Below are positions 5,091 through 52,665 of a stretch of 64,000 bases of DNA, one piece after another. The notes under the pieces were generated by a model. That model was not told the origin of the DNA. It did no database searches and worked only from the letters and a program-made list of their open reading frames with translations. The position numbers were made by a program, and so were the translations under genes. Positions within the stretch are counted from its first letter, which is position 1. Every line of letters starts with the position of its first letter. Origin of the DNA: Candidatus Multiplicimicrobium inquinatum (GTDB lineage Bacteria; Omnitrophota; Omnitrophia; Omnitrophales; Aquincolibacteriaceae); contig DDUN01000038.1 in NCBI GenBank assembly GCA_002344825.1, forward strand, positions 21,061 through 85,060. Direction: 5' to 3'.

Positions 5091-6188
5091 ATGGATATAC
5101 GCATCGATAAAAACGAATTATTGTCGAAAATTTCTTTAGGGGTGAATATCAGTTCTTCAAAAGCGACAACCCTTCCTATTTTAAGCAACCTCCTACTTGA
5201 AACTAAAAAAAATAAACTTCAAATTATTGCCACAGATATGGAAGTAGGTGTTTTAACTTCTTGTAGTGCTGAAATTAAAGAAGAAGGAAGTGTGACGGCG
5301 CCGGCAAGAAAATTTTATGACATCGTGAAAGAATTATCCGACGGAGATGTGGAGATTCAAGTATCAAAAAACCACACCGTTCAAATTAAATCCGGCAAAT
5401 CCGTTTTCAAAGTGATGGGAATGGATAAAGAAGATTATCCGCAGCTTCCGGAGCCGTCACTTGAAAACGCGATTGAAATGGAACAAAACACACTTAAAGA
5501 AGCGCTCCAACTTACTTCTTTTGCCGTTTCACGCGATGAAACAAGATATGTTTTAAATGGCATTTTAGTTTCATTTAAATCAGATATTTTTCGATGTGTT
5601 GCCACAGACGGAAGACGACTTGCATATTATGAGAAAAAACTTCCGAGTAAAATAAAAAAAGATATTGAAATTATTATTCCGAGTAAAGCCGTTCATGAAT
5701 TATCTAAACTTTTAGGGTGGGACGGAACCGTTCAAATTTCTGTTTTTCAAAACAAAGTTGTTTTTTGTGTCGCGAATACTTTTTTAAGCGCCACTCTTAT
5801 TGAAGGTAAATTTCCTAATTACGAGCAGGTGATTCCAAAAGGAAAAGGAACCACCGCTGAAATTAACAGAAATGAATTATTGCAATGCTTGCGTCGTGCC
5901 GCGCTTTTAACATCGACCGAAGCACCGGCTGTAAAAGTTGATTTTTTAAAAGGGCGCGTCATGATTACCGCGCGCACACCGAATTTAGGCGAAGCAAAAG
6001 AAGAAGCGGTTAGCCGGCACGAAGGCAAAGAAATGACAATCGGATTCAACCCTGATTATTTAATGGATGTTTTAAAAAATTTAGAAACGGATAATATTGT
6101 TTTTACTTTGAGTGATGCGGATAAGCCCGGTGTTGTGGAAGGCAAAGAAGGCTATCTTTACGTTATTATGCCGATGCAAATACACTGA
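5091..6188 (+). CDS. dnaN: DNA polymerase III beta sliding clamp.
   Basis: 365 aa with a three-domain clamp pattern. The N-terminus is MDIRIDKNELLSKISLGVNISSSK…LLLETKKNKLQIIATDMEVGV and the C-terminus is …YLYVIMPMQIH. It is in the canonical position after dnaA. Confidence 0.93.
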   Translation: MDIRIDKNELLSKISLGVNISSSKATTLPILSNLLLETKKNKLQIIATDMEVGVLTSCSAEIKEEGSVTAPARKFYDIVKELSDGDVEIQVSKNHTVQIKSGKSVFKVMGMDKEDYPQLPEPSLENAIEMEQNTLKEALQLTSFAVSRDETRYVLNGILVSFKSDIFRCVATDGRRLAYYEKKLPSKIKKDIEIIIPSKAVHELSKLLGWDGTVQISVFQNKVVFCVANTFLSATLIEGKFPNYEQVIPKGKGTTAEINRNELLQCLRRAALLTSTEAPAVKVDFLKGRVMITARTPNLGEAKEEAVSRHEGKEMTIGFNPDYLMDVLKNLETDNIVFTLSDADKPGVVEGKEGYLYVIMPMQIH

Positions 6189-36201: not shown

Positions 36202-39200
36202 TTGATGGGACGGCATCAGCAGTTCTTAAAATTTGTGGCCACAGCTGTCATCATGTGTCTTTTGGCGCAGGATGCGGCGGTGGCATTGCCATCGCAGACT
36301 ACAGACTACAGACCACAGACCACAGACTCTGCGGAAACTCCCGGAGTTGAGGGATCGCATCTCCGGGAGTTGGGCTGGTTAAGCACAAAAAACCTTGGAA
36401 CGATTGATGAAGAGTTCCAAGGCACGAACGGTAAAAGCATTACCTTCATTCTCGATGCCCACGACTCTCTCGACGCGCAAAAGAATATTGTCCGAATTAT
36501 TCAACGGGCAACAGCCTCAGGCCGGGTTCGAACCGTCTTCGAAGAAGGTTATGAGGACGAGCTCAATACGGATGAATGGTTTGGCGATATCCAAGATGAT
36601 CAAATTCGCCGCAAAGTTGCTTACTATTATTTGGATCAACTTAAAATTGGCGCAGCAGAGTTTGCGCATATTAATCGGCAGAGCCGATTAGGACAAAGAA
36701 CAAAGGACAAAAAACAAAGCACCGATTGGCAATTAGTCGGCGCGGACGACAAACAAGCTTATCTTGAAAACGTGCGCGCTTTCGGTGACTCTGAAAAAGT
36801 CCGCGCGAAAATCCTGCGTGACACGCAAGCCATTCAGCGCGAACTGAAAGCTGTAGGCGCTAAGCAGCTTACGCCCGAAGCTCAAAAGTGGATTGCCGAT
36901 TATCAGCGCTTCCATGAGCATGCGCTTCCTCTGCTTGATTATTTAAATCGCTGGCTTAAATTTATTCCCCAAGAAGCTTGCCCGCTTTTACGCCGTATTT
37001 TGTCCGCCGCGCAAGATTTAGAACTTGCGCGCAGTATTCAACGGATCCGCGCCGCAGAAGTTTTAATTGAAATCAAACAATTCGAATCCTCACTGGAAGC
37101 GCATTTTTTTGAAGAAAGACAAACCGCCGAGATTTGGCAAGCACAGAAAACCATGGGTTCCGTTGAAAAATTGACTAATCTTAAAATTTCAAGTCATGAG
37201 CTGGATGAGCTTAAGCAGAATTTGAAAATGTGGGATACGGAAAGCCTTGCGCCCTTGCTTGCTCGCGCGAAGAAAAATCCTGTCGTGCTTTCCAAACGCT
37301 GGGAAACACTCATTCAAGACGCGCTGAAATTTTATGAGCTTGCGCATAAAAGAGATATGGCGGTGGAGAGAGCTCTTTTAAGTTGGAACAACTCCTCGGC
37401 TCCGCTCAGGGCAAGCGAACAAGAGCCAAAGGACAAAGAAGCGGTTTTGGTGTTCGGCGGTTTTCACCGCGAGGGAATTACCGAAATTTTGCGGCGCAAC
37501 GGATTTTCTTATACGGTTGTCATTCCTAAAATCACCGATTTTTCCAAGCGTCACCAATTGCTTTATCGCGAAGCTATGAGCGTTGGACCACGGGGCTCGG
37601 GCCACGGAGCCCGCCAAATGGTTCAAGCCGCGCGTCCGCTTTCAGGTTTTTATGATCACGGCTTTCGTTATGAAATTCCGCTTGTGGCGGCTCTCGCAAA
37701 AGAAAATCCAAAGCTAGATCAAAGAAGCTTTGCCTTGCTTGTCGAAAGAACACTTTTAGAAAAAAGTTCAACAACCGTGGCGCGTGGAGTTAATGGCGAG
37801 AATCTGAGCCGTCCCTCGGCTTCTCCCAACACGCGCCGCCTTTTGTTTTCAGCTCGCTCCGAATCTCGAAAAAAAGCAGAGAAGGTTCTCGATTATGAAG
37901 AAATTGATTTTGGGACTAAAAATCGTTTTTTAAAGAAAGCTTTGTCCACCTACTTAACTCCCAAGGTGTTTGAAACGGGCGGATTCATTTATAAATGGTT
38001 CGGGATCCAATATTTCATTTTTTTACTTAATCAATTTGACCGTCAAAAAATTCTACCGCGGTTACCCGTAAGCCTTTCCACCCCGCTTACGGATTCAAAG
38101 CCCGAAGAAGAAATTTCTGTCTCGGGACGAATCAAAATGGGATCTGCTTTAGAGATTATGCATCTCGCGGCATTTTTTATCATATTGGCTTTAGCCTCTA
38201 TGGAGCATTTAAGTGCAGATAATTTTGGAGCCACGTTATTGCATTTGGGAAATGTAATTGCAAATGTGTACCCCATTTTTGTTCAACGCTATGTTCGGGC
38301 AAGACTATGGCCTCGATATATTCAGATAAAAGAAAATGAAACCAACCGTTCCGAAGCCCGCGCGGGAACAGCCAAGAAGGAAACGGTGATTCGGAGCCCC
38401 GAAGTGCTGCGCCTTGCTTTGGGAAAATTCAATATTTTAAATTCCGGCGCACTGCATGAGTTGTTTTCTTCTCAACAAACAAGCCTGCAAAAGCTTACAA
38501 AAGCTGAGCGGGACCTTTTAAGGCGTATAGCGCTAATAAGAGACTCAACGAAAAAAGTTATGCGTAAAGAGAAGGGTGAGAATGAATTTCATGGGCCCTT
38601 TGCTCCTGCAAACGTGAGCCAGGTGATGACGGTTTTGAAGCATCTTGGAGCAAAACAGGGCGAAAAAATAATGGATCTGGGTCACGGCGAAGGGAGCGTG
38701 CTTTTTGGTGCGGCGGCGCTGTTTGGTCTTCAGGGTCTTGGCGGGGAGCTGAATTCCTATCTTTACAGGAAAAGTGCCGCGATTCAAGCGGAGCTGGTTG
38801 ATGCCGGGATTTTAGACGCGGGCGCCGTCGAGCTTAGAAAAGAAAACTTTAATCAGCTTGATCTTCGAACTGCTGATTATGTTTTCTTTTTTTCATTCGG
38901 AGGAAAAGTTGATCAGGAGAAGCTCTTGCGAGAGTTAAAGCCCGGCGCCAAATTCATTCTTTTGGGACTTAAAAACACCAATTGGGAGCAGGAGGAATTA
39001 ACCGGCTACTCTGATTTTTCAAAATTATTGGAAAACGGGCAGTTTGAACTTGTGCGATTTCCGGAACTGAGAACTTGGGTTTTCACAAAGCGGTCCGCGC
39101 GTTCCGAAATGCGCGAAGCAACTCGCGCGCAGATTTTGGAAATTTTAAGGAATTTCGAGCAGTTTCGTGAAAATATAAAAGTCAGCGAGCCTGTTGTGTG

Positions 39201-42200
39201 GGATTTAGAGGGGGTTGAATTAAACCGCGCACGGCCGCTGTTGGTGCTTCCTGATATTCATGGCGACCTGGAAGGCATGCTCGCCATGCTTTATTTCAGC
39301 GGCGTGATTGACCGCGAGGGCTTACCGACGGGCAGCGCGGATGTGATTCAGCTGGGAGATGTTATTAACGGGCGCGAGCAATGGTTTGAAGCGGATGATT
39401 ACCTGCGTTTTTTACAGCAAGAATTTGAGGAACGGGGACTTAGTCTGATTCGCCTGGCGGGCAACCACGACGTAAAAGTTTTGAAAGCCTTTGATCGCAA
39501 GAAATATTTTTTGGAATGGGTTTATGGCCCGTCCGAACGGCAGTTAAGCGGGTTGCGGGAATTTTTTCAGCAGTATTTATGGAAAAACCCGGGCAAACAA
39601 GGCCGGCAACTATTAAGAAAAAAGTTTACTTCCGTCGGTCTGCCGCTTCATATTTATTTTATTTTGGAAAAAGCGCGGGATTTTTATCAGGCAGTTAAAA
39701 ACGATATTCAAACCGGAAAAATCAAAGCGGCGGCAAGATTCGGCAATCTTTTTGTCACACATGCCGGATTGTCCCCGGCCGCGATGGAAGAGGAGTCCCT
39801 CGGTGCGGATTTTGATGAGAAAGCGGACGTTCTCAATCGGGCTTTTCAAGCATGGCTTTTAAAAGAAAGCAAGCCAAAGCAAGATGAGAGAACTGCAGAC
39901 GACGAAACAGTCGATGAACGCATCAAAATCATTCTGAAAAAAGCTCTCGGAATGAAAACAGCCGAAGGATTTAAAAAATCAAGCGTTTGGCAATTGACAG
40001 GGCATCGTCCTAAACGGCATAAACGCGTGAGCTCTGATGAGCGAATGATTTCCGCCGACTTTGATTTAGCGCGCCGCTTTGAAGTCTCCGAAGACGATCC
40101 TGTTTATCCGCGCATTTTATTTTTGAAGGAAAACCAGTTAATCGAGCAGGAAATTAAATTACCGCGCTTTGAAAGTCCGCCTTCGCCTGCAGATGACGGG
40201 GAAACATTGAAAGAAGAGTTTGTTGCCCGTTTTTCAACCGAAGAATTAAAAGAGTTTGAAATAAAGCCTGTCTCCCGAATTCGACTGATTAATTTGATTC
40301 AGGCCGCGATTAGCCAAAGCGGTGTATTAGAAAGCGCGTCCATCCAAAACGACTCCGTTTTTGTGAGAGTCATTGAGACAGCCGCCCACGGGGAAAGCAG
40401 CATTACGTTGCCCGCGCAAAATTATCATATTGGGGGGTATCATTCGACACTGGCAGAAGCTTATTTACAGCAAAACTATTTGGCGGGCGATGAGTTTTTG
40501 AACACGGTGCACGCGATTGAAGTTTGGCGCCGCTCCGAGGCGCGTTATTTGGAAGCGGAAAAAATTTACTTTGACAGCCCTGAATTTTTGAGCGCTACGC
40601 ATTATTTTAATGAAGCCGTCATTGTGCGAGACGAAGCCGGGACCATTCAGCCTATGGACTGGAACAAACTCATCACAATTTATGAAAGACTGCGGGGCGA
40701 TGATGTCAATGCCGAGTATACAGATGAAGATCGGCAGCTGAGGCTTTCGCATGAAAATGAGCCGTGGGCTCGGGAATGGCTTCAAAATATAAACCGGCAG
40801 GATTTAACTGGCGACGAAGCGCTTAATTTAGGAGTGAAAATCTACCGCGATAGCAGCGAAGGCGATGGCAGAAATCAGATGTTTGTAAAAAAAGCGGGCT
40901 TTGACCGGGTTCGCCCCCCCAAAAAAGCAGGAGCTTATTTTGAGCGGCACCCTGCCGATGGGCACCATGGTTTGGCTTGGTTTTTAATGAATTTTTTCTT
41001 GATGCGCAATGGATACGCTCCTTTTTATTTTAAGAATGAGAAAGAGTATTTGAAAATTCCGATCGACTATTACAACCGTGATGAAGGCGCGGCTCGTTTG
41101 CGTCAGCTTCTCCGCGAAAGAGTTTTTTCAGAAAACAAAGGCAACCGTTCCGAAGCGCGGACAAGCGATGAAATCGGGCTCCAACAAATTAAAAATACGG
41201 AAATTGCTTTGACGCCGCGCGCGTTTCACGGCCGAAATTGGCTTCGCTATCCGTGGATGACCACAAGAAAAAAAGTTTGGGAAGTTTTCGGGCTGCCCGA
41301 CCCGCGCGATGCAAAACCGGCGCAGCAAAAAACATCGCGCGACATCACCTTTATTAAACGCAAAAGTGACCGTCATCCGGTTTGGGTGATTTTAGAAAAA
41401 GACAAAGTCCGCTTCGAAGAAAAATTTGCAAGAGAATTACTTATGCTGCGCGGCAAAGCCCGTTCCGAATCTCGAAACGACCCCAAAAAACAGGCGGCGG
41501 AGTTTTCAAAAAAAGCGAATGCCATTATCAAAGCACGGGGCAATTTAGAAGAAGCCGCGCGGCTGGCGGAAGAAGCCATCGAACTTGATTATACAAATGC
41601 ATTTGCGCATGTGGCGCTTATTCAGGCGCGGCGGGGGCTGGGTCAGTATAAAGACGCGCTTGAAGCATTTATCTCAGCAGAGCGGGATATTCCCGATAAC
41701 CAATACGTGCGCGCAATGTTTCCGGGTATTTTAAATTCTTTCGCGGCTCAATCAGCGGAGCAAAATCGGCTTGATGATGCCATAGACACTTTCCGAAAAA
41801 TTTTTCCGGATACGCCGGAAGAACTTCAAGAAAGCGTTAAGTTAACGGCTATGCGGGCGCGTGAAGCCTTAGCGTATCAAGCCATTGAAAGAGGCGATTT
41901 TGGAAAAGCGCTTCAAATAGCCGAGCAAATCAATCAGATTTTACCTAGCAATCAAACAACAGATCTTATTTTAGCGACAGCATTTATTCATCAAGGCCAG
42001 CCCGGGCGCGCAGAAGCACAGCTTGATTTCTCGCGCAGAAAATTTTTAGCGCGGAATCCCCGAAGTTATTTAATTAAAGCTTTGAGCGCGGCACATAAAC
42101 TTCGGCCGAATGAAGCGAAGGCAATATTAAATGAAGCTCAAGACGTATTTTCAGCTGAGAAAAGCATTGTGGGGGTGATTCAAAAGCACTCGAAGCTGAT

Positions 42201-45200
42201 TGAAGCCGGCGCGGATGTTGGCGAATTACTTAATCAAGTAAATCGAGATCCCGTGCTTGCTGCGCGCGAAGAAAGAATTATTGCCGGAGTTTCTCGCTCC
42301 GAATCGCGCCGGCGCTCTCAAGATGAGGGAGAAAAAATTTTAAAACTCCATACGCTTTATATGGATGTGATGCGCAGAAAAGCAAATGCGTGGAAAGATG
42401 GAGCTGAAAAAGTAGAAAGCGCGGGTTTTTTAGTTACGGACGTTGGCTATTATCCGATTGATACGGACAACGAATTCGAACACTTGCTGGCGATTTTCCC
42501 CAAAATTCGTGATAAGACAAATTTTAATCAACCCCTTCGCTTTCTTGATTTAGGATCAGGCGCCGGCAAGCTTTTGATACAAGTGCTAATGCTGGACGCC
42601 CATCTTAATGGAGTTGGCATCGAATATGATCAGGCGCTTTATGAAGTTTCTTTAGACCTCGCTGAAGAAGCCGCAAAACAAAAACTTATTTCTCGTGAGC
42701 GCGCGCATTTTTTAAAAGGGGACTTTTCTGTCCCTGAATTTGAAAAAGAAATTTCTTCCGCGGACGTTCTTTTTCATTATCAGGCAAGCTCATTTGACCC
42801 CGCGCTGCTTGAACAAGCATTGATTCGCTCGATGCGCCCAGGAGCCAAGCTTTTAGTATACGGGTCATCTCGTGATTATTTCCCAAAACTATCGGCGCGC
42901 GCTGGTTTTGAACGGGCGTTTGATGAGACAGCGCGAGTGACAACTTATAAAAGAAATTTCATGCCGCGCGAGCCCATCTCTTATCAAGATACAGCCGTTG
43001 TTTTTGTGCATACCGCGGGCATGGGGGATCACTCACTGCCTTTGGCGCTGGATAACCGGCGTGTGATTAAAGATGCCGTGAAAGCCATGCAAAATTTAGG
43101 CGGCAAAGAACTTGAATTTTATATTGACGGTCATCCGAGCTATTTGCCGCCGCGACCCGATCGCATTCGTTCCCGACAAGAAAACACAGCCGCGCTGACT
43201 TCGCCCTTTAGCTACGATTTTGATCCTGTCCGCAATCTGCGAAGATTTGTTATGGCTGGGGGAGAGTGTGAAGCTTGTTTTCAAGCCGCGCTCACTTCGC
43301 TATTGGAAGAAAGCAGCGGGCAAGCAGCACCGAAAGAAATCCATTTAGCCGCGGATGCTGTGTACCAAGTTGTTCCGGTCCCAGATGAAGATGATCTTCG
43401 CGGAGTGCTCCATGAATCAAAAGCTGTTTCCAGCGAGCAGGTTTTTGACATGGCAGCCAAAACGTTGGCTCGAAACAGATTTACTTCGATCGGCAAAATT
43501 TCTCGAGCTGAAAACTTTTTGACCCAAGGCACATTCTCAGAAAGCTCCCAGGTTGTTGTTTGGGACAATTATCGTGAAATGATTGATTGGATTCGTGCCG
43601 ATCAAAAGAGATCTGAGGCGAGAGCCAATTTCAAAGCTGTTTGGAAAAGTGCGACAACCGCGGATGGCCAAATGCGGATGGCTTTGGGCTTGTTGCGCCG
43701 TGTCGAGCAATCACGAAAAACGCGCGGCTTAGATCTTCCGGACAAGCTAACTGAAATTTTAAAAAATGCGGATGAAATCGGCGTCGGACCGCATGCGCAG
43801 CTGAACAATACCATTGCTCTTTTGCGTATTTTAGGAATTCACGTCGCTTTTAAATTGATCCCCGGCCTTGGAACGGTAGGCGCGGCGGGATTGGGGATGA
43901 TGGCGCTGAGTGGGCCTTGGTTTTTTGCGGGCCTTTCTCTTTTTATGCTGCAGGGTTTTTTGCGCGCGGCAACCACCGCGTGGTTCTTAACGGGAACGCA
44001 ATTGCCCGCAAAAACAGGGCTGGCTTTTCTATCGGCAATTCCGGCGCTCGGAATTTTGGCGGTTCCGGTTTATATGCTTGCTTTAAAAGATCAGCGCGGG
44101 CTGGGTTTCGCTATTTTAGATTACTTTTGGAATTCCGCTTGGGACAAACTTCTTTTTCCATCATTGATGGCTTTAGGAGCGGGACTTTTTTGGGTATTGC
44201 GTTGGGGAGTGAATCTGGGAGTCTTTGCTTTAATAACAGCGGCTTCTGTTATTTTTTTTACTGGGTCAAAATACATGGAATGGCGTGATCAGGGACGGAC
44301 TGTCTTGCAAAAAACAGTTGAAGCTGTTTCGGTGATAGGCGCGCTTGCCGGCTTTGGGGCAACGATCTTCTATTTTGGATTTTTCAGTCTGGCGACACTT
44401 TTTGTTTTTACCGCAATGGCTGTTCTTTTTAAGGGACTGCAAATATTTTTTGATTTTCGAGAGCGGCTTTTCCGTAAATCTTTGAGAGAGCCCGGCTCGC
44501 CCGCAGCGGCTGAGAAAAAAGAGGGCGATTTTAAAAACCGCTCAGAAGAGCGAAGCGCATTAGAGATTTTTGATGAAGCGGCGGACAATTTATTAGCTTA
44601 TCCAAAAGCGCTTCTTCATTCACGCGGCTTAGAGCCCTATCTGGATGCGTTCGACCGCGAGCATTATGCCTGGGATGAAACGCATCAGCATTGGGCGTCG
44701 AAAGACTTTCATCCGACGATTACGGGCGCGAAGCGGCTTATTTTAGGGTCTTGGGAAGATATTCGGCGCGCCTCGCCTGGTGAACACGCGCGCATGAAAA
44801 ATTTTGTCGCCATTCGTTTAAACACAACAGAAGGAGCGCGCAGTTTTTATGCTTTTGATGACCACGGCTGGTCGCTTCAGGCTTATGCCGAGGCGCATTG
44901 GCGCGGAGAAATTCCGGCGCTCGGCAACACACAGATATTTATAGACAAGCACGGTGATGATCGAAAAGTACGTGACGGGCAATATTACGCGGAAAGGTTT
45001 ACCGCGATACTCCGTCAGGATGCCGGAACGAACAATAATATCGAATTTGATATGGGCGGTTTTAATAACACGCTTTGGTCTTCGGGGTTTATTCCGAAAG
45101 AAAATCATCATCGATATCATGCCCGCATGAGCTGGCTCAAGGAAATGATGATCGGTTTTCCAAACAATCGGGCTGTTTTGCTGAATGTCGATACGGACGT

Positions 45201-48200
45201 GACAGAGTTTATCGTGGGTGATTGGGGGAACGAAATGCCGCTTGGTTTGGGAGAAGAGGATTTTGAGTCGCTTGCCGTTGATTTAACCAATTTACGCGAT
45301 CAATACGGCTTGACTCCGCTTACGGCGCATTTCACCACAACGCATTTTGAAAATGAAAATTTGGCAGATTTTTCTTTGCATTCAAACCGCATTCAATACG
45401 GCGACACCGAGCTTGCGCGTTTTCTTGCCCGCATCGCTCCGTTTATTTATTTTGTGAAAGATCAGCCCGTCGAATTGCGCGATCAGGCGATTGCGCAAGC
45501 GGCGCAAGAACATGCCGCGCAATGGAAGCAGGATTTTGGCGCTAAATTTAACCGTTCCGAAATGCGGGCGGAAATCATTTTTCCCGATGCGCAAAAAGTG
45601 AAAGATGTTTTTGAGAAAGCGGAGGGATCCGCGGTGCTTTCAGAGGAAGACCTTGAAACTGCTGTTCAACAAGCTGTGGCGGAAAGCCGTGCGTGGCTTG
45701 CCGACCGTGTTAAACAAGAAACGCCCGAAAGCGAAAGACGGGCCATCGCGCTTCAGGCCGCTGAAGAAAAAATTGACGAAAGAACTTTGTATTTAGAGCC
45801 CGAGCATTGCGGTCAGCAATGCGGTTTTTCTTCGGGGGATGTCAGAGACAGACTGTATTCTCTTTTGGGGGCGAAGGTCAAAATTCGGCGTATTCAGGCT
45901 AAAGATGGCTTTGGTGTTGCGCAAAGCCAAAAACACCTTCTAACACTTATATCGTTGCCGGACAAATCCAAAATTTTCCTTATAGATTTAACTTTCGCGC
46001 AGTTTATGGATCGAAAGAACAGCCCCTCTCCTTACATTGGGATGCAATTAAAAAGCAATGCGCCCGATCAGCTGAATACGCTTTTACGCCGCGGCTATGT
46101 CGATTTAACCGAGAACAAAGACTTTTTAACGCAATACGCTCAATCTTTTCTATCTGAGGCGGAGGATGATGACGCGCATTATCCTTTAGAGCATTTTCCC
46201 GCTGAGTATATTGCTGATCACACCGATTTGATTTCACAGCCCATGAGTGATTTTATAAATATTCCGGCAACCGCCGAAGAGAATTTCAAAAAATCTTTGG
46301 AAGAGCGCGGAACAAAATTTCTCATTTTAGCAAAAGAGCGGCGTGAAAGAATTTGGAGGGGATTTTTAAGCTTTTACCGGAATAGCGCAGGGCAGCAAAG
46401 CAATTTAAAAACAGAGGATGGCCGGTTTTTTGAATTTAGCGCGCGCTCCGAAATGCGGAATGATGAAGTGGGCAACCCTTTTTTCGTAATGGTTCACGGG
46501 GAATCGCGATATTGGCAAAAATTAGAAAGCGAGGGTTATTTTTCAGAAGAAGACAGGTCTTTGATCTTTGACGCCGTGGATGGATTAATTCGTCCCGATG
46601 CTTCAATTTTAGATTTAATGTCAGGCAGAAAAATTAGCTTTTCAAAAAAGCAGCGAAATATCACCGCCCTTGGATTGACGGAAGCTATTCTGCGCCAAAA
46701 TAAAATCGACGGAAAGATCGATAATTTTGATGTGCAGGACCTAAACCGTAACTCTCAACTACCTTACGCTGATAAAGCATTTGATAGCGTGGTGATTTCT
46801 TTTGGCATCATGTATCTGACGCAGCCGGCGGAGGTTTTGAAGGAAGTGCGCCGTATTTTGAAGCCGGGGGGCAACTTGATCGTGATTTACGCCGAAGATT
46901 CCTGGGCAAGTTCTTCCGCGGTTGCTTTATGGAACCAACCAGGATTATTCCGCTATCGGGGAAGCCGTATTTATGGGCCGCCGTTTCTTTCGGATGATCA
47001 CCAGGAATTCAGTCAATTTTATGGCCAAAGCGATGTTTTAAACTTTTATCTGCGCGGCGCAGGCTTTGAAATTACGGAGCGAAAAAGAGTTTTTGGAAAA
47101 AAAGACACGCGGGTTGTTGGTTCTGAAATGTTTGCTGAGATGGAAACGCAGAATATTTACCAAATTGTTTCTTCCGGCTCGTCCGCGCGATCTGAAGCGC
47201 GGCTGGATGAGTTGCTGGATAAAAACCGCCGCAATGCGGATGAATGGAAAGAAACGATTCGTCTTATTAAAGCCACTTTGCCCTTGGCCGAGGAAGTGAC
47301 CCCTAGGATGATTGTTGAAGCACCGGCGGCAAAAGGAAAATTGCGTTATCAGACTTTAGTTATGGCGGTTCATCAAACCGGAGGAGATTATGCGAGCTTT
47401 GGACTTGATGCGGAGGAAAAAAACTCAATTTCTGAAAAAGAAACCAAAATCAAAGCGGCAGCTCGAGCTCTTCTAGCCGAAAAGAAAAGCCCAAGTCCTG
47501 AGGCCGTTTTGAGTTATCTTCAAAAACCAGCACATTTCTTTAAAGGGTTAGATGAAGGCGCGCTAAAAAAGTTAGGGCTTGTTTTTCCTGAAAAGAAAAA
47601 GACGGCGGATGAAAAATACATGCCTATTTTAGAAGCGCTTGTCCAAGCAGGAGAAAAATTCGAAACGGTTCGTGAGATTGCTATCGCGGCCGCAGGCGTT
47701 CCTGAGAGCTACGTGAAAGAGCTTGGCGCACCTAAGCTTACTGCTATGGGACTTCTCACAGGGGGAACAAACCCATATGAAAAACTTTCGCAAAGATTTC
47801 GAGTTGCTCGCCAAGCTAAAATTAATGCAGCGCAGGCTAGAAAAACCCCCGTACGAACAATTGCCGAGCTGTCTGAAAGCACAGGTATTCCAGCCACAAC
47901 TTTAGCGAAATATACCGCGCAGCAGTTAGAAGAGCTTGGTTACATTCCGCGCCCCGTCAAGCTTGAGCGCGCGGTAAAAGCTTTGCTAGTTGAAAATCCC
48001 GGGCAAATTATTTCTTATGAAGTATTGGCTCAGAAAATAACTGAAATGGGCCTTGAAGATCTGAAGCCAGAGCAGCTGCGCGAATGGAATGCTTATCAAA
48101 AGCCGCCTTTTACCGCACAGCCCGGCTGGAGGAAGCGTTTCGAGCCGATCATGAAAGCCGTTGAAGTACTTGGAACGAATGATAGCGAATTAGACTTATT

Positions 48201-51200
48201 TTTTAAGAACTCACTTGGCGTCCAAACCGTCTGGATTTGGCAGATTGAATACTTTGTGGCTAAAGCGGCGGATATTTTAAAACAAAACCCTTATTTTCGA
48301 AGTAGATGGAATGAACAAACAGGAAAAGATTTTACCGCCGCGGTGATGCGCGCGCATACGGTTACAGAACCGGAAAAAGCCGAGCTACAACAGATATCCG
48401 CTAAAGACGCGGCTTTAAAATGGCTTGTTGCCACCGGCGGCGCAGAAACACTTAAACCGGCTGGGCCCGTTTCTACGATTCAAATTTCTTTGGAAGGCTT
48501 TTCCGAAAACGGTCAAACCTTGTATGAAAAGTATGAGTATGAAAAAACAAACGGCCTGAGTGCTGAGATGCTTGTTGAGCAGCTTGGTTTTTCGGATCAG
48601 CCCGGAGCAAAAAGAAGGCTGACGGATATTAAACAGGTTTTAATTGATGGCATTGATCAAGGCCGGTCTTGGCATAAAATCGGTTTGTCTTCCCGGACGA
48701 GCGCCTTAGTTATTAGGCATAAAAACTATCAAAGGCCGCAAGCCTCTCTTGCCGAAAGCAAAACAAGCTTGAATGTCGAAAAAACCTCTGTTCCGAGAAG
48801 GGAATTAAAAACAAAACCATCTCCGTCTCGTGCTACGGGTCGCCGCGATGCCCGATATTGGACCATTGCCATGCTTTCTGCCGCTCAGCGTCTTGAGGCC
48901 GATAAATTCTTTGACGTGGCTGAGAAAGCGATTCAAGCAATGAGGCAAGAAGGCGTTCGCAAAGATTATCTAACAAGTTTTACGCGTGTTTTTGATAAGC
49001 ACGCTCGGCAAATGGATCTGCTTAGTCAGGAACCCGAAGATCGAGAAGCTTATCAGCGGTATCAGTTGATTTTAAAGTTAATAGGAGAGCTTCAAGCTTC
49101 TGCGCGCTCCGAAACCCGTTCGGTTCCCGCGGAACAATATTTTATTGTTGGGGATATTACCCGCGCGGATTTGATATGGTCGGAATCCGCGATGGGCTTA
49201 CCTGAAAGCGATGATCCTGAAAAATCAAAGCGCCTTTTAGCCATTCGTGATGCATGGAATTATTTGCGGCCGATTCAGCGTGAAATCATTCGGCAAAGAC
49301 ATGGAATGAGCCAACACAAATCGACGGATTGGAAAAGTATCGCAAATCGGATAAATCGACACAAGGTTGGCATTATTCAGCTTCACACACGCACACTTGA
49401 ACAACTTCAAAGCTTAGAAAATGGCGCAATGGCATTGTTTCAAGACACAGGTATTCCGTCCAAACATCTTCAAGAAGCTTTTAATTTGTTTTCAGGCAAG
49501 CCGCTTCATCAGTTAATTTTAAAATTAGAATACGGCTTGGATGGTATTCCGCGAGAAGAAGATGACACAGCCATCGCCAAGATTTTAAAAGAAAAAGTAA
49601 GCGCTGAACTCGATCGTGGGCAAGTCGCTGACCTCAGAAAACATCTGCTGAAGCAACTGAAAGTCTTGGCGGTAGAAAAGGGATGGACCGATCTTGAAAT
49701 CATGCAAAAAAGAAAACGAAAGAAAGCTGCGCCAAAGTGGACAGAAGCTGAGCTTGAAAAATTTATGCGCGAAAGATCCGATGAAGGACTTGCGGCCAGA
49801 GGCGGAGTTATTGATGGTGGTTTTGAGTATGTATATAACTTAATGAGAGCTAGGCATGGAACATGGGAAGCCGCCCTTCGATTTTACGGAAGAAATCCCG
49901 AAGCAATCCGTTTGCGCTCCGCCTTGCCAAACCGGCTGGATGAAGCTGCCGCCTTACAAGCAGCGGCAATCTCTTCGGTGAAAGCACAGCCAGCGACAGC
50001 TCTGGAAACGCCTGTCGTTGCGCCCGCCATAGAAACAATAATTTTAATGGAAGAAGAATATTTTTATATTCAAGATCTTATTTCTCGCGGAATAACTTTG
50101 GCAGAAATGGTGCGCAGATCCGACGGGCATCATCTTCGCCCGATTTTTGCAGCGATTATGGGAATCATCAAAGTCACTGCGCCGATTTTTGAAAAATATT
50201 CAAATTTTGAAAATCGAGAAACCGCGCTCAAAGTTTTCAATGACCTCAAAGAAATTGAACTTCGAATTCAAAAATTGCCGTCGATTCCGGAACCGGATTT
50301 GCCGAGGCATCGCCCAGTCTCTGCCGTGCCCGCTACGGCGCCTCAACCCGTTGTTTCGCCGGTACCGCTTTCGTCCCATGACAAATTAGCGCAAGATTTT
50401 CAGAATGGTTTGCGTACTATCCTGAATGCCTTGGAGAGCTTTCAAAGCCGCTCAATTCATAATCAGGAAGGATTTGACCGCTTTAAAGGAGAGCTTGCCG
50501 GTTTCCGCGACCGTTTCGACAAAATTAAAAAAGCACTTGAAGAAGAACCGGGTTTAGCAAGCCGCTACGCGCAGATTCAAACGCAGTTGCGGCTTTTTGA
50601 AAATGCTTTGCGCGAACCCGAAGCCAAATTAAAAACAGCCAAGACTCGTTTTGAGGGCGGTGCAGTTGCTCGCAAATCGGCGCTATCTGTGCCGCCATTG
50701 AATCGGCCTCGGCCTTCAGTTTCGAATGTTGCGGCCGCTGAGAGAAAGCATGGGCACGGACACTATGCGCGGGCAAAGCGTTTAGAAAAAAACGAAAAGC
50801 CGGCACAGACAAATGATTGGCGCACAGCATTAATTAAAACCGGAAAAACGAAAGAGGCGCTGGAAGAAGATTTACTTAATTTGGAAGAGCTCTTGTCTCA
50901 AGAGCCTCAGGATATTTCCGCGACGGAGAAGCCCCGCATTGTCCGACTGGCAGAAACCCAACAAGCATGGCTTCGTATTTTAGCGGCGCTTTTTCTGCCT
51001 TCAGAAAAGCCGCGCGCGGAGCTAAGCAAGGCTGCCAAAGAATTTGAGCTGCTTTTTAATCAGGATGCGCAGATTACGCGCGACAAACACCGCATGTTAA
51101 TGGCGGACCCGCGTTATCAGGCTTATGATGCCGCAGTGTCGCGTCTCAACGATGCTTCAAAAACAAGACTTGTTCCCGCAGGCAAATCGGTAAACGGCGC

Positions 51201-52665
51201 GGATCTTTTTACGTTAAGCATGGCAGAGATCATTGCCACCTCATTTTGGGATAAGCATGATCGTGATATTGCGCGCTCCGAAATGCGGGACCCTCAAAAA
51301 GCGGCCGAAGATATTTTTAATAATTTCTTTCTGGATCCTGTTTCACGGAAAAAACTTGTAACCACGCACCTAACCATTCGTACGATCGGGGAAGATCGCG
51401 GCCTCGACCCAGAAGATGTCGGGTTGTGGCTTTTGGAGTGGGATTTTGCGCGAGCCCTTGTTTTACAGCAGCTTGTCAGCAACCTGAATGGAATTCAAAA
51501 AACATCTCCCGAAAGACTTGAAAGCGCGCTTGATTTGGATTTGGCTTATTCGCAAGTCATGGAGCTTGCGGGAGGGCCTCAATATCGGCAAATTTTGAAT
51601 TTTTTCCACGACAGCGAAGAGCTTCCGATCGACTTTGGAAGGAAAGTCGATGAGGCTATTTCCGGAGTTAAAGCGGACGTCGCAGAAGTGCATGCTTCGC
51701 AGGGTTCTCAGGAGTTAATTTGGCGGCTTCGGAATGATGCGAATGACTACAAGCGGTACCTGGATTACATTACGGGCATTGTGGAGAAGGAGAATTTTTG
51801 GAAATTTGACCTTGAGCTTGAGAGGTTAGAGTGGCAGCAAAGCGTGTTTTTTCGGTCAGAGGCACGGTATCAGCAGATTTTGAACTCAGCGCTCAAACGA
51901 GTAAGTCCGGATCAAGCGGCTGAATCGTTGATGGAAATCGAATTCGAATTGTCGGTCCAGGAAGAAGAAAAATTGGACTCGGAATTAAAAGAGCTCGCGA
52001 TTTATTTTGCTGAACAAGGTGATTTAGAAAAAGCCGCCGTGATGTTTTGGCTGATTAAAGATGACAGCGTTGCGGCAAGTCTTACGCAAGAAACAAAAGG
52101 CCTTGAAAATCTTGGAAGACAGCGGGAGGCGCTTATCTCGTCCAATGCCCAGCACTTAATGCTTAGCGCAAATCGAACGGCAAGCGTTGAGCGGTCAGCG
52201 TTGAACGGTCCGAAGGCACGAATTTTAATCAGCCGCGAAGAGCTTGTCAAAATGTCAGAAGAAAACTTTTTGGCTTTTTACAAATTTTTCTATCAAAACC
52301 AAGAGTTGGAGCTGTCCGTCTACAGCTCCGGCTCAAAAAATCCAGAAGAGGAAACGCGTGTCGGCTTGCTTGAGGCCGTCCCCTCGGCAAAAACCGGCCG
52401 CGTTTCTTTCTTCCTGGACCTGTCTTCCGCGGCGCAAGGCGGGGAAGCGATTGAGTTTTCTTCTGTGCCGGGGACAAAAACAGTGCGTGGTAAAAAGATC
52501 GCCGCAGCGGATATTCGCACAGTCGAAGGCATGGCATCCGGATTTTTAGCCGCCATGGGTATGGAATATACCGAAGAGAAAGGCTTTGTCCGCGTGACGA
52601 ACGGGGTCGAAATCAGCCGCTTTTTTGAATTCTTGTCTTGGCAAGTCTTTGCGGCCTCGGCGTAA
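36202..52665 (+). CDS. Giant multidomain protein, 5487 aa (16.46-kb single ORF). It has a signal peptide, a Tiki/TraB-like N-domain, two DOT1-like methyltransferase folds, a PPP-type phosphatase, a Fic-like motif, TPRs, an internal TM bundle and a class I methyltransferase. It is punctuated by R-S-E-x-R motifs.
   Basis: One uninterrupted reading frame with an AAGGA RBS. The signal peptide is MMGRHQQFLKFVATAVIMCLLAQDAAVA. Motifs are read directly from the translation; see the findings for each. There are no stops in 16.4 kb, and codon usage is like the neighbouring genes. Confidence 0.75.
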   Translation: MMGRHQQFLKFVATAVIMCLLAQDAAVALPSQTTDYRPQTTDSAETPGVEGSHLRELGWLSTKNLGTIDEEFQGTNGKSITFILDAHDSLDAQKNIVRIIQRATASGRVRTVFEEGYEDELNTDEWFGDIQDDQIRRKVAYYYLDQLKIGAAEFAHINRQSRLGQRTKDKKQSTDWQLVGADDKQAYLENVRAFGDSEKVRAKILRDTQAIQRELKAVGAKQLTPEAQKWIADYQRFHEHALPLLDYLNRWLKFIPQEACPLLRRILSAAQDLELARSIQRIRAAEVLIEIKQFESSLEAHFFEERQTAEIWQAQKTMGSVEKLTNLKISSHELDELKQNLKMWDTESLAPLLARAKKNPVVLSKRWETLIQDALKFYELAHKRDMAVERALLSWNNSSAPLRASEQEPKDKEAVLVFGGFHREGITEILRRNGFSYTVVIPKITDFSKRHQLLYREAMSVGPRGSGHGARQMVQAARPLSGFYDHGFRYEIPLVAALAKENPKLDQRSFALLVERTLLEKSSTTVARGVNGENLSRPSASPNTRRLLFSARSESRKKAEKVLDYEEIDFGTKNRFLKKALSTYLTPKVFETGGFIYKWFGIQYFIFLLNQFDRQKILPRLPVSLSTPLTDSKPEEEISVSGRIKMGSALEIMHLAAFFIILALASMEHLSADNFGATLLHLGNVIANVYPIFVQRYVRARLWPRYIQIKENETNRSEARAGTAKKETVIRSPEVLRLALGKFNILNSGALHELFSSQQTSLQKLTKAERDLLRRIALIRDSTKKVMRKEKGENEFHGPFAPANVSQVMTVLKHLGAKQGEKIMDLGHGEGSVLFGAAALFGLQGLGGELNSYLYRKSAAIQAELVDAGILDAGAVELRKENFNQLDLRTADYVFFFSFGGKVDQEKLLRELKPGAKFILLGLKNTNWEQEELTGYSDFSKLLENGQFELVRFPELRTWVFTKRSARSEMREATRAQILEILRNFEQFRENIKVSEPVVWDLEGVELNRARPLLVLPDIHGDLEGMLAMLYFSGVIDREGLPTGSADVIQLGDVINGREQWFEADDYLRFLQQEFEERGLSLIRLAGNHDVKVLKAFDRKKYFLEWVYGPSERQLSGLREFFQQYLWKNPGKQGRQLLRKKFTSVGLPLHIYFILEKARDFYQAVKNDIQTGKIKAAARFGNLFVTHAGLSPAAMEEESLGADFDEKADVLNRAFQAWLLKESKPKQDERTADDETVDERIKIILKKALGMKTAEGFKKSSVWQLTGHRPKRHKRVSSDERMISADFDLARRFEVSEDDPVYPRILFLKENQLIEQEIKLPRFESPPSPADDGETLKEEFVARFSTEELKEFEIKPVSRIRLINLIQAAISQSGVLESASIQNDSVFVRVIETAAHGESSITLPAQNYHIGGYHSTLAEAYLQQNYLAGDEFLNTVHAIEVWRRSEARYLEAEKIYFDSPEFLSATHYFNEAVIVRDEAGTIQPMDWNKLITIYERLRGDDVNAEYTDEDRQLRLSHENEPWAREWLQNINRQDLTGDEALNLGVKIYRDSSEGDGRNQMFVKKAGFDRVRPPKKAGAYFERHPADGHHGLAWFLMNFFLMRNGYAPFYFKNEKEYLKIPIDYYNRDEGAARLRQLLRERVFSENKGNRSEARTSDEIGLQQIKNTEIALTPRAFHGRNWLRYPWMTTRKKVWEVFGLPDPRDAKPAQQKTSRDITFIKRKSDRHPVWVILEKDKVRFEEKFARELLMLRGKARSESRNDPKKQAAEFSKKANAIIKARGNLEEAARLAEEAIELDYTNAFAHVALIQARRGLGQYKDALEAFISAERDIPDNQYVRAMFPGILNSFAAQSAEQNRLDDAIDTFRKIFPDTPEELQESVKLTAMRAREALAYQAIERGDFGKALQIAEQINQILPSNQTTDLILATAFIHQGQPGRAEAQLDFSRRKFLARNPRSYLIKALSAAHKLRPNEAKAILNEAQDVFSAEKSIVGVIQKHSKLIEAGADVGELLNQVNRDPVLAAREERIIAGVSRSESRRRSQDEGEKILKLHTLYMDVMRRKANAWKDGAEKVESAGFLVTDVGYYPIDTDNEFEHLLAIFPKIRDKTNFNQPLRFLDLGSGAGKLLIQVLMLDAHLNGVGIEYDQALYEVSLDLAEEAAKQKLISRERAHFLKGDFSVPEFEKEISSADVLFHYQASSFDPALLEQALIRSMRPGAKLLVYGSSRDYFPKLSARAGFERAFDETARVTTYKRNFMPREPISYQDTAVVFVHTAGMGDHSLPLALDNRRVIKDAVKAMQNLGGKELEFYIDGHPSYLPPRPDRIRSRQENTAALTSPFSYDFDPVRNLRRFVMAGGECEACFQAALTSLLEESSGQAAPKEIHLAADAVYQVVPVPDEDDLRGVLHESKAVSSEQVFDMAAKTLARNRFTSIGKISRAENFLTQGTFSESSQVVVWDNYREMIDWIRADQKRSEARANFKAVWKSATTADGQMRMALGLLRRVEQSRKTRGLDLPDKLTEILKNADEIGVGPHAQLNNTIALLRILGIHVAFKLIPGLGTVGAAGLGMMALSGPWFFAGLSLFMLQGFLRAATTAWFLTGTQLPAKTGLAFLSAIPALGILAVPVYMLALKDQRGLGFAILDYFWNSAWDKLLFPSLMALGAGLFWVLRWGVNLGVFALITAASVIFFTGSKYMEWRDQGRTVLQKTVEAVSVIGALAGFGATIFYFGFFSLATLFVFTAMAVLFKGLQIFFDFRERLFRKSLREPGSPAAAEKKEGDFKNRSEERSALEIFDEAADNLLAYPKALLHSRGLEPYLDAFDREHYAWDETHQHWASKDFHPTITGAKRLILGSWEDIRRASPGEHARMKNFVAIRLNTTEGARSFYAFDDHGWSLQAYAEAHWRGEIPALGNTQIFIDKHGDDRKVRDGQYYAERFTAILRQDAGTNNNIEFDMGGFNNTLWSSGFIPKENHHRYHARMSWLKEMMIGFPNNRAVLLNVDTDVTEFIVGDWGNEMPLGLGEEDFESLAVDLTNLRDQYGLTPLTAHFTTTHFENENLADFSLHSNRIQYGDTELARFLARIAPFIYFVKDQPVELRDQAIAQAAQEHAAQWKQDFGAKFNRSEMRAEIIFPDAQKVKDVFEKAEGSAVLSEEDLETAVQQAVAESRAWLADRVKQETPESERRAIALQAAEEKIDERTLYLEPEHCGQQCGFSSGDVRDRLYSLLGAKVKIRRIQAKDGFGVAQSQKHLLTLISLPDKSKIFLIDLTFAQFMDRKNSPSPYIGMQLKSNAPDQLNTLLRRGYVDLTENKDFLTQYAQSFLSEAEDDDAHYPLEHFPAEYIADHTDLISQPMSDFINIPATAEENFKKSLEERGTKFLILAKERRERIWRGFLSFYRNSAGQQSNLKTEDGRFFEFSARSEMRNDEVGNPFFVMVHGESRYWQKLESEGYFSEEDRSLIFDAVDGLIRPDASILDLMSGRKISFSKKQRNITALGLTEAILRQNKIDGKIDNFDVQDLNRNSQLPYADKAFDSVVISFGIMYLTQPAEVLKEVRRILKPGGNLIVIYAEDSWASSSAVALWNQPGLFRYRGSRIYGPPFLSDDHQEFSQFYGQSDVLNFYLRGAGFEITERKRVFGKKDTRVVGSEMFAEMETQNIYQIVSSGSSARSEARLDELLDKNRRNADEWKETIRLIKATLPLAEEVTPRMIVEAPAAKGKLRYQTLVMAVHQTGGDYASFGLDAEEKNSISEKETKIKAAARALLAEKKSPSPEAVLSYLQKPAHFFKGLDEGALKKLGLVFPEKKKTADEKYMPILEALVQAGEKFETVREIAIAAAGVPESYVKELGAPKLTAMGLLTGGTNPYEKLSQRFRVARQAKINAAQARKTPVRTIAELSESTGIPATTLAKYTAQQLEELGYIPRPVKLERAVKALLVENPGQIISYEVLAQKITEMGLEDLKPEQLREWNAYQKPPFTAQPGWRKRFEPIMKAVEVLGTNDSELDLFFKNSLGVQTVWIWQIEYFVAKAADILKQNPYFRSRWNEQTGKDFTAAVMRAHTVTEPEKAELQQISAKDAALKWLVATGGAETLKPAGPVSTIQISLEGFSENGQTLYEKYEYEKTNGLSAEMLVEQLGFSDQPGAKRRLTDIKQVLIDGIDQGRSWHKIGLSSRTSALVIRHKNYQRPQASLAESKTSLNVEKTSVPRRELKTKPSPSRATGRRDARYWTIAMLSAAQRLEADKFFDVAEKAIQAMRQEGVRKDYLTSFTRVFDKHARQMDLLSQEPEDREAYQRYQLILKLIGELQASARSETRSVPAEQYFIVGDITRADLIWSESAMGLPESDDPEKSKRLLAIRDAWNYLRPIQREIIRQRHGMSQHKSTDWKSIANRINRHKVGIIQLHTRTLEQLQSLENGAMALFQDTGIPSKHLQEAFNLFSGKPLHQLILKLEYGLDGIPREEDDTAIAKILKEKVSAELDRGQVADLRKHLLKQLKVLAVEKGWTDLEIMQKRKRKKAAPKWTEAELEKFMRERSDEGLAARGGVIDGGFEYVYNLMRARHGTWEAALRFYGRNPEAIRLRSALPNRLDEAAALQAAAISSVKAQPATALETPVVAPAIETIILMEEEYFYIQDLISRGITLAEMVRRSDGHHLRPIFAAIMGIIKVTAPIFEKYSNFENRETALKVFNDLKEIELRIQKLPSIPEPDLPRHRPVSAVPATAPQPVVSPVPLSSHDKLAQDFQNGLRTILNALESFQSRSIHNQEGFDRFKGELAGFRDRFDKIKKALEEEPGLASRYAQIQTQLRLFENALREPEAKLKTAKTRFEGGAVARKSALSVPPLNRPRPSVSNVAAAERKHGHGHYARAKRLEKNEKPAQTNDWRTALIKTGKTKEALEEDLLNLEELLSQEPQDISATEKPRIVRLAETQQAWLRILAALFLPSEKPRAELSKAAKEFELLFNQDAQITRDKHRMLMADPRYQAYDAAVSRLNDASKTRLVPAGKSVNGADLFTLSMAEIIATSFWDKHDRDIARSEMRDPQKAAEDIFNNFFLDPVSRKKLVTTHLTIRTIGEDRGLDPEDVGLWLLEWDFARALVLQQLVSNLNGIQKTSPERLESALDLDLAYSQVMELAGGPQYRQILNFFHDSEELPIDFGRKVDEAISGVKADVAEVHASQGSQELIWRLRNDANDYKRYLDYITGIVEKENFWKFDLELERLEWQQSVFFRSEARYQQILNSALKRVSPDQAAESLMEIEFELSVQEEEKLDSELKELAIYFAEQGDLEKAAVMFWLIKDDSVAASLTQETKGLENLGRQREALISSNAQHLMLSANRTASVERSALNGPKARILISREELVKMSEENFLAFYKFFYQNQELELSVYSSGSKNPEEETRVGLLEAVPSAKTGRVSFFLDLSSAAQGGEAIEFSSVPGTKTVRGKKIAAADIRTVEGMASGFLAAMGMEYTEEKGFVRVTNGVEISRFFEFLSWQVFAASA

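Follow-up and report, generated by a model that had tools for sequence, protein, structure and literature searches.

A conserved GHHR-type loop in a very probable Fido-fold module of a giant Omnitrophota protein

A 64,000-nucleotide (nt) stretch of the genome of Candidatus Multiplicimicrobium inquinatum (Omnitrophota; GenBank assembly GCA_002344825.1, contig DDUN01000038.1, positions 21,061 to 85,060), here called the window, contains a giant open reading frame (ORF) in which a 25-amino-acid (aa) string resembling the Fic motif, HPADGHHGLAWFLMNFFLMRNGYAP, had been pointed out in an initial annotation. Our analysis of the segment carrying this string showed that the segment is very probably a homologue of the Fido fold, and that its unusual loop, G-H-[HN]-R-L-A-W, is a conserved family signature rather than a decayed loop. 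On balance, we consider the family to be an uncatalogued and strongly diverged Fic/Fido-fold branch, that is, a ~200-aa autonomous module shuffled among giant or large proteins in Omnitrophota, in Planctomycetia, and in a small number of other uncultured lineages. The string was indeed present at aa 1583 of the ORF and located between two RSEAR motifs, close to the positions given for them (aa 1447 and 1648; Table 1).

The relatives of this module were identified by an exhaustive phmmer scan covering 1.84 billion cluster representatives, which yielded 51 sequences at E ≤ 1e-3, of which 31 also passed E ≤ 1e-10. Almost all of the 51 form part of other large or giant proteins, mostly from Omnitrophota and Planctomycetia. 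A word-indexed homology search returned nothing for either the segment or a 34-sequence family alignment; because the exhaustive search found 51 relatives, including the identical P0001, these negatives reflect search sensitivity, and results of this kind are unreliable for modules buried in giant proteins. Similarly, a search of the GTDB genomes for related loci with the single segment found nothing, while a 6-sequence alignment used as the query recovered 11 further copies, all GH[HN]R, labelled Omnitrophota, Planctomycetia, and Eisenbacteria and residing mostly in open frames that span the whole fetched locus.

For the subsequent comparisons, 34 family members were aligned for structure prediction and Pfam searches, and 53 copies for column counts. 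These alignments revealed a multi-motif domain, in which FLxAVxYFN is followed by TWxxxxxLYExFRGD..NPxYT..R..RL, an invariant Asn, AAxIY, QxF...PGFD, and a final motif, (h)PA(S/D)GHHRLAWFxMNYFLIRNGYxPFYF. In the 53 copies, the loop and its surroundings are highly conserved: G139 is found in 51, H140 in 52, H141 in 39 (with Asn in another 8), R142 in 51, W145 and N149 in 50 each, N155 in 51, G156 in 48, and Y161 in 50, while G118 and F119 further upstream are found in 50 and 51, respectively. The loop had initially been taken for a degenerate version of the Fic motif; these data show instead that it is no one-off and that the window copy has lost only the Arg of a conserved signature. In fact, it retains 17 of the 18 near-invariant positions of the GHHR-type family (G-H-[HN]-R-L-A-W-F-x-M-N...N-G-Y-x-P-x-Y-F plus FLxAVxYFN, FRGD, and PGFD), the exception being Gly in place of Arg142. 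This Gly occurs in the window copy alone (1/53 aligned copies and 0/11 GTDB copies, i.e., 1/64). An assembly error was ruled out, and G142 is real, because the same 615-nt segment is present, base for base, in three independent assemblies (NCBI GCA_035436425.1, JGI 3300013502, and ENA ERZ761609). The closest relative, P0002, is a 6,247-aa protein of the uncultured bacterium CAYSSX01 (locus L006), which contains two tandem module copies near its C-terminus (aa 5625-5824 and 5857-6047), both with the nest Arg and each followed by RSELR, a motif that occurs 16 times in this protein. Because this position differs from that in the window protein (aa 1449), the module is mobile within giant proteins. 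No conserved domain neighbour was found among the module carriers, only an N-terminal head recurring in eight proteins (see below); the module is a shuffled cassette.

Sequence comparisons linked this family to Fic proteins. When the family profile was searched against PDB sequences, 15 of the 16 matches were Fic proteins (IbpA Fic2, human FICD, C. elegans FIC-1, and BT_2513), although each match was weak (E 0.1-0.7). The single member P0051, which reads PPFNEGHHRLAW, gave 13 matches, all of them Fic, with a best E-value of 0.042. Furthermore, hhalign aligned the family with 12 class-II FICD-like Fic proteins from plasmids at a probability of 87.8-88.8 % (P 2.5e-6 to 3.3e-6); the alignment is colinear over 119-121 columns, from Fic alpha1 to beyond alpha5, and the reversed-template control gave a P value of 0.47. 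The proposed resemblance to Fic is thus beyond chance. Class-II sequences were needed for an informative profile comparison: E. coli Fic alone gave a probability of 0.1 %, and 13 class-I Fic/VbhT-type proteins (from E. coli and plasmids) were aligned only at the motif (23 columns, P 0.027), in the same register as the class-II proteins.

Structure prediction extended this similarity to the whole segment. AlphaFold2, run on the 34-sequence alignment and no templates, predicted an eight-helix domain with high confidence (predicted local distance difference test score (pLDDT) 93.5 and predicted TM-score 0.90 for the best model; pLDDT 88.8-93.5 for the five models), in which DSSP assigned no strands. 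A single-sequence AlphaFold prediction had a pLDDT of 36 and was discarded. In a Foldseek search of the best model against the PDB, ranks 1-25 were all occupied by Fic proteins, first FICD and then IbpA Fic2, C. elegans FIC-1, and BT_2513. The FICD structures were matched at a probability of 0.89-1.00 and a query TM-score (TMq) of 0.44-0.52 over ~200 columns, whereas the non-Fic matches reached a TMq of at most 0.23 and a probability of at most 0.04; the E-values were 0.056 or worse. The motif sits at the alpha4-alpha5 junction, at the N-terminal end of the counterpart of Fic alpha5, as the initial annotation had anticipated for a structural check, and the first residue of this helix (residues 140-154) is the one that aligns with the Fic Asn. 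At the fold level, the predicted module has the features of the Fido fold, namely, an all-alpha core whose active-site loop joins alpha4 to the N-terminus of alpha5. Overall, the hhalign probability (88 %), the confident model, and the Foldseek ranking agree with the earlier proposal of a Fic/Fido fold carrying a non-canonical loop.

The register of the loop was the same in HMMER and hhalign. From P136 on, it is ungapped throughout, and the window residues R-H-P-A-D-G-H-H-G-L-A-W correspond to Fic H-P-F-x-(D/E)-G-N-G-R-x-x-R. H135, which is present in 20 of the 53 copies, is therein aligned with the Fic Pro, and the column of the catalytic His contains no His in any of the 53 copies (P 12, A 6, G 6, S 5, R 4, E 4, and others). 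The H-P-x-D-G of the window copy had been read as a retained H-P-F-x-D-G, a reading that these alignments do not bear out. The residue aligned to the catalytic His is R134, which belongs to a ~30-aa family-specific insert (residues 106-134, QxF...PGFD) that is without a Fic counterpart in the hhalign alignment, is predicted with a pLDDT of 86-93 but no helix or strand, and contains no His-rich column. Of the eight specified positions in the Fic signature HxFx(D/E)GNGRxxR, the window copy matches two (D and G), and the family consensus x-h-P-A-(S/D)-G-H-H-R-L-A-W about three. What the module keeps is the first Gly of the motif (and, in the window copy, the Asp), the LMN...L...GY.P helix, and, in the family but not in the window copy, the first Arg; His-His replaces Asn-Gly, and Trp replaces the second Arg. 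The beta-hairpin flap is also missing: at its site, the family skips 10-11 columns of the hhalign alignment, and the model has no strand. In class-II Fic proteins, the inhibitory helix (SNAIEGN in the aligned set) directly precedes the site with which helix 1 aligns, and the family module begins only after that helix; the inhibitory pattern (S/T)xxxE(G/N) is not in the window copy and occurs in 10 of the 53 copies, scattered over positions that are not homologous. In no frame of the window was a canonical Fic or Doc motif found. Taken together, the features of the Fic family proper that could be tested are all missing from the module: it is not matched by the Pfam model, it lacks the signature and the catalytic His, and it has neither flap nor inhibitory helix.

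What could such a site do? In Fic enzymes, the His serves as the general base, the Asp/Glu binds Mg2+, and the flap registers the target strand, while the phosphates are held by the two Arg residues together with the backbone of G-N-G-R at the N-terminal end of alpha5; ATP occupies a crevice built by alpha1, alpha2, alpha4, and alpha6 (PMC8401265). Since the base, the flap, and the gamma-phosphate Arg are lost, classical AMPylation is unlikely and, judged from sequence, would not be expected for this family. The most conserved residues (N22, R50, R66, N83, G118/F119, G139, H140, R142, W145, N149, and N155) map in the alignment to Fic alpha1, alpha2, alpha4, and the alpha5 N-terminus, i.e., the nucleotide crevice. 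Given these conserved polar residues on the crevice helices and in the nest, a phosphate-ligand site of new composition is favoured. The family would still bind a phosphate-bearing ligand in the G-H-H-R nest at the helix N-terminus, with Trp145 nearby and the invariant H140 as a candidate new catalytic or ligand-contacting residue; the outcome could be a transfer or hydrolysis that differs from the Fic reaction, or the specific sensing of a ligand. We put forward this function of the G-H-H-R nest only tentatively, as somewhat short of an even chance. The window copy, with Gly for the nest Arg, would probably be weakened or inactive at this site. A bolder version, in which the GHHR family is a new Fido catalytic class, appears unlikely at present: here, the nest would bind a phosphate-bearing substrate and His140 would carry out chemistry new for Fic proteins (modification or hydrolysis), and the module would be one cassette in polyprotein-like giant effectors that are punctuated by RSExR and belong to ultra-small, possibly predatory Omnitrophota.

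Several results weigh against a diverged Fido-fold branch with a ligand site of this kind. The Pfam Fic model (PF02661, 2025 copy), against which a check of the segment had been suggested, found no match at E ≤ 1 in the window segment or in any of the 34 members, and NCBIfam (2026) gave only a weak DOC_P1 match in 2 of the 34 (E 0.09). When the family alignment was split, the motif and alpha5 (~30 columns) alone reached P 2.9e-7 in hhalign, while the N-terminal 130 residues gave P 0.037 in the colinear register and 0.23 with both sides truncated. Because the N-terminal part is weak alone, significance at the sequence level is nearly confined to the flagged stretch, and the claim that the whole domain is Fic-like rests on the predicted structure. 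Confinement of the similarity to the ~25-aa string had been named beforehand as an outcome that would speak against a Fic domain; this is nearly the case for the sequence (~30 residues), whereas the predicted structure supports the whole domain. In addition, the putative crevice placement of the conserved residues was derived from the alignment, not from the model coordinates; the conserved His-His-Arg could also be purely structural or binding; and any ligand, target, or activity of family members is putative. The gene context of a stand-alone family member, P0199, provided no functional lead either.

Among the other explanations, the main one is a non-catalytic Fido-fold pseudoenzyme, in which the module would act as a binding or scaffolding domain, for example by docking a partner or another module. 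The loss of the catalytic His, the flap, and the second Arg is in line with this idea, as is the window copy, whose 17 retained positions in the absence of the nest Arg are what would be expected if this Arg were dispensable here. A precedent may be seen in the Beps, about a quarter of which show great variability in their pockets and may no longer be active (PMC8401265). However, H140 (52/53), R142 (51/53 and 11/11 GTDB copies), N149, and N155 are near-invariant, and so are the polar residues N22, R50, R66, and N83 on other helices, although the family sequences are only 25-40 % identical. Conservation of this kind would be more usual for an active site or a ligand site than for a scaffold, and we consider the pseudoenzyme to be an unlikely explanation, albeit one to be taken seriously. 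A chance or convergent resemblance, in which a buried helix of an unrelated helical domain merely reads like Fic alpha5, is improbable. The failure of Pfam and NCBIfam to detect the module, the concentration of the sequence signal in ~30 residues, and the Foldseek E-values above 0.05 would fit it, but it does not account for three independent lines of evidence that all lead to Fic: a colinear hhalign alignment over 120 columns (P 3e-6), PDB matches that were Fic whether the profile or a single member was the query, and the template-free AlphaFold2 model with its 25 top structural neighbours all Fic and a clear TM gap to the rest. Finally, a classical Fic AMPylase with a shifted loop, in which a one-residue deletion makes H135 of HPADG the catalytic base, has very little to recommend it: the literal H-P-x-D-G does resemble H-P-F-x-D-G, the loop location makes a one-residue shift geometrically possible, and 20 of the 53 copies have H135, but both alignment programs place this residue on the Fic Pro without a gap, the other 33 copies lack it, among them one of the two nearest paralogues (P0002, with ENAPADGHHR), and the motif Asn, second Gly, second Arg, and flap are gone, as is the first Arg in the window copy. 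We thus retain the diverged Fido-fold branch as the preferred reading.

The features of the module and of the ORF that contains it are listed in Table 1.

Table 1 Positions of the Fic-like module, its elements, and the RSExR motifs in the window (nt of the window; residues are numbered within the 200-residue segment unless marked aa, which refers to the giant ORF)
Feature	Position	Strand	Remarks
Fic-like (Fido-fold) module	40546-41145	+	aa 1449-1648 = segment residues 1-200; all-alpha; between two RSEAR motifs
Helix 1, residues 12-25	40579-40620	+	FLxAVxYFN (A17, Y20, F21, N22 conserved); aligns with Fic alpha1
Helix, residues 89-105 (AAxIY)	40810-40860	+	Fic alpha4 equivalent
Family-specific ordered insert, residues 106-134	40861-40947	+	between alpha4 and motif; conserved Q111-x-F113, G118-F119-D120
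Flagged string HPADGHHGLAWFLMNFFLMRNGYAP, residues 135-159	40948-41022	+	aa 1583-1607; aligned to Fic PFxDGNGRxxRLLMNxxLxxxGYP
G139-H140-H141-G142	40960-40971	+	counterpart of Fic G-N-G-R anion nest; family consensus G-H-[HN]-R; window copy Gly (GGT) for Arg
Helix, residues 140-154	40963-41007	+	Fic alpha5 equivalent; W145 at second motif Arg; N149 = N of LLMN
C-terminal helix, residues 175-194	41068-41127	+	closes module just ahead of downstream junction motif
Upstream RSEAR junction motif	40531-40545	+	aa 1444-1448
Downstream RSEAR junction motif	41146-41160	+	aa 1649-1653
Giant ORF	36202-52665	+	5,487 codons from TTG; ATG at 36205; carries the module
RSExR sites in 36202-52665	37855, 38347, 39100, 40531, 41146, 41461, 42295, 43609, 44539, 45553, 46444, 47188, 49105, 51274, 51853		
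RSExR sites in 54110-61930 (n = 4)	56081, 57086, 61028, 61295		
Recurrent motifs of other carriers			P0002 RSELR x16; P0030 RSExR x14; P0036 GARL(A) x16; P0006 (D)RTSP x15; P0016/P0022 (A)GLEE x6-8; P0005 KPFAPDM x6

The giant gene, which has genes for YchF and RlmN as neighbours, was called with a length of 5,486 aa in several public assemblies, derived from bioreactor sludge and from other samples. Its product contains 15 RSExR motifs, against 0.16 expected from composition. The copies differ in synonymous codons; RSExR is therefore selected at the peptide level, and a DNA-level repeat was ruled out on the same grounds. According to Pfam, the segments bounded by RSExR hold one domain apiece, and the protein is thus a mosaic in which RSExR punctuates single-domain segments. 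The recognisable domains are a CrtO-like membrane domain, two DOT1-like methyltransferases, TPR repeats, Methyltransf_11, and the Fic-like module. The segment directly upstream of the module (39115-40545) shows metallophosphoesterase-like motifs by eye (PDIHGD, GDVINGRE, GNHD, and THAG) and a weak PDB match to the metallophosphatase-type cold-active protein-tyrosine phosphatase of Shewanella (1V73/2Z72, E 0.01), with no Pfam match at E ≤ 0.1. At the N-terminus (aa 1-555, 36205-37869), a head region consists of a signal-like start (MGRHQQFLKFVATAVIMCLLAQDAAVALP) and a ~450-aa domain. This ~450-aa head is shared by eight other giant proteins that have the Fic-like module, always at the N-terminus, and may define a class of mosaic giant proteins; neither Pfam nor the PDB sequences gave a significant match to it. 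A second very large ORF (54110-61930, 2,606 aa) with four RSExR motifs is located directly after ychF and has no Pfam match at E ≤ 0.001.

Other giant proteins carrying the module have recurrent motifs of their own, placed right behind the module (Table 1). Together with RSExR, these look like lineage-specific junction or cleavage sites. In a preprint on giant genes, the cleavage points are stated as unknown (bioRxiv 10.1101/2023.11.21.568195), and a literature search for RSEAR, RSEMR, and RSESR returned irrelevant substrings only. The family also includes a complete stand-alone homologue of 442 aa, P0199, which is encoded at four loci in JGI metagenomes (L033-L036). The gene of a PD-(D/E)XK/Cas4-like nuclease (401 aa) precedes it at a distance of 3 nt, a protein of 1,547 aa with faint multi-helix-turn-helix matches is encoded nearby, and the gene order is kept in the four samples.

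Searches of further resources gave no additional assignment: PADLOC returned nothing meaningful, and phmmer with the window segment against PDB sequences found no Fic protein but only a chance match to uS5m (E 0.4). The Omnitrophota giant-protein literature that was checked (including bioRxiv 10.1101/2023.11.21.568195) makes no mention of Fic, AMPylation, polyprotein, or linker. The GHHR signature, its architecture, and its host context are therefore absent from Pfam, NCBIfam, PADLOC, and this literature. The functions and processing of Omnitrophota giant proteins are largely unknown (bioRxiv 10.1101/2023.11.21.568195), and the annotation of this module lights up one of their many 'dark' modules, although its practical value will be modest until a ligand or activity is found.

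Among known systems, the class-II FICD/HYPE Fic proteins (PF02661; PDB 4U04 and 6I7K; plasmid 'Fic family protein' homologues) are both the best structural neighbours and the best profile match. They share with the GHHR family the alpha1-alpha5 order, the motif site between alpha4 and alpha5, the start of the G...R nest (in the family), and the LMN, L, and GY.P of alpha5. In contrast, they have a catalytic His, Asn-Gly, and the second Arg, where the module has none, His-His, and Trp, respectively; they also have the inhibitory helix, the flap, and TPR or other accessory parts, all missing from the module, which in turn has the ~30-aa insert before the motif. The best PDB match for the profile (E 0.098) as well as for P0051 (E 0.042) was IbpA Fic2 of Histophilus somni (3N3U and 4ITR), with PPFNEGHHRLAWFLMNFFLINNGYPPF aligned to HPFAEGNGRMARVIVNKILLDAGYPAF. 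IbpA Fic2 is a Fic module that, like the window module, forms part of a very large multi-domain protein. Unlike the GHHR family, which has neither, it possesses the full canonical motif and a flap that registers Rho-GTPase switch-1 (PMC8401265).

Departures from the canonical motif are known in other Fido members. In Bartonella, Beps with degraded FIC motifs, including the flap-less Bep5, keep the fold, and other modifications or a loss of activity have been proposed for them (PMC8401265). The Beps are, however, class-I FicT derivatives with a strict PFxxGN, whereas the GHHR family has an invariant His for the Asn and is closest to class II. Doc (P1 death-on-curing; HxFx(D/N)(A/G)NKR) is a Fido member in which an altered motif goes with altered, kinase chemistry; unlike the GHHR family, it keeps the catalytic His and Asn, and it gave no significant match here. 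Kinch et al. are said to have described AvrB in 2009 as a Fido fold with a non-canonical or missing motif; no sequence or structural match to AvrB occurred among the family-profile PDB matches or the Foldseek matches. What defines a Fic enzyme is a single motif with a single mechanism, in which a His base acts above a phosphate nest formed by G-N-G-R. The known motif departures in Doc and AnkX each revealed new chemistry, as did that in AvrB. The GHHR family, rare yet clearly conserved, is a candidate either for a further type of Fido chemistry or for a pseudoenzyme that senses nucleotides. Thus, while non-canonical motifs have precedents in Doc, AvrB, and the Beps, the GHHR signature and its context appear, from the resources searched, to be new among Fido proteins.

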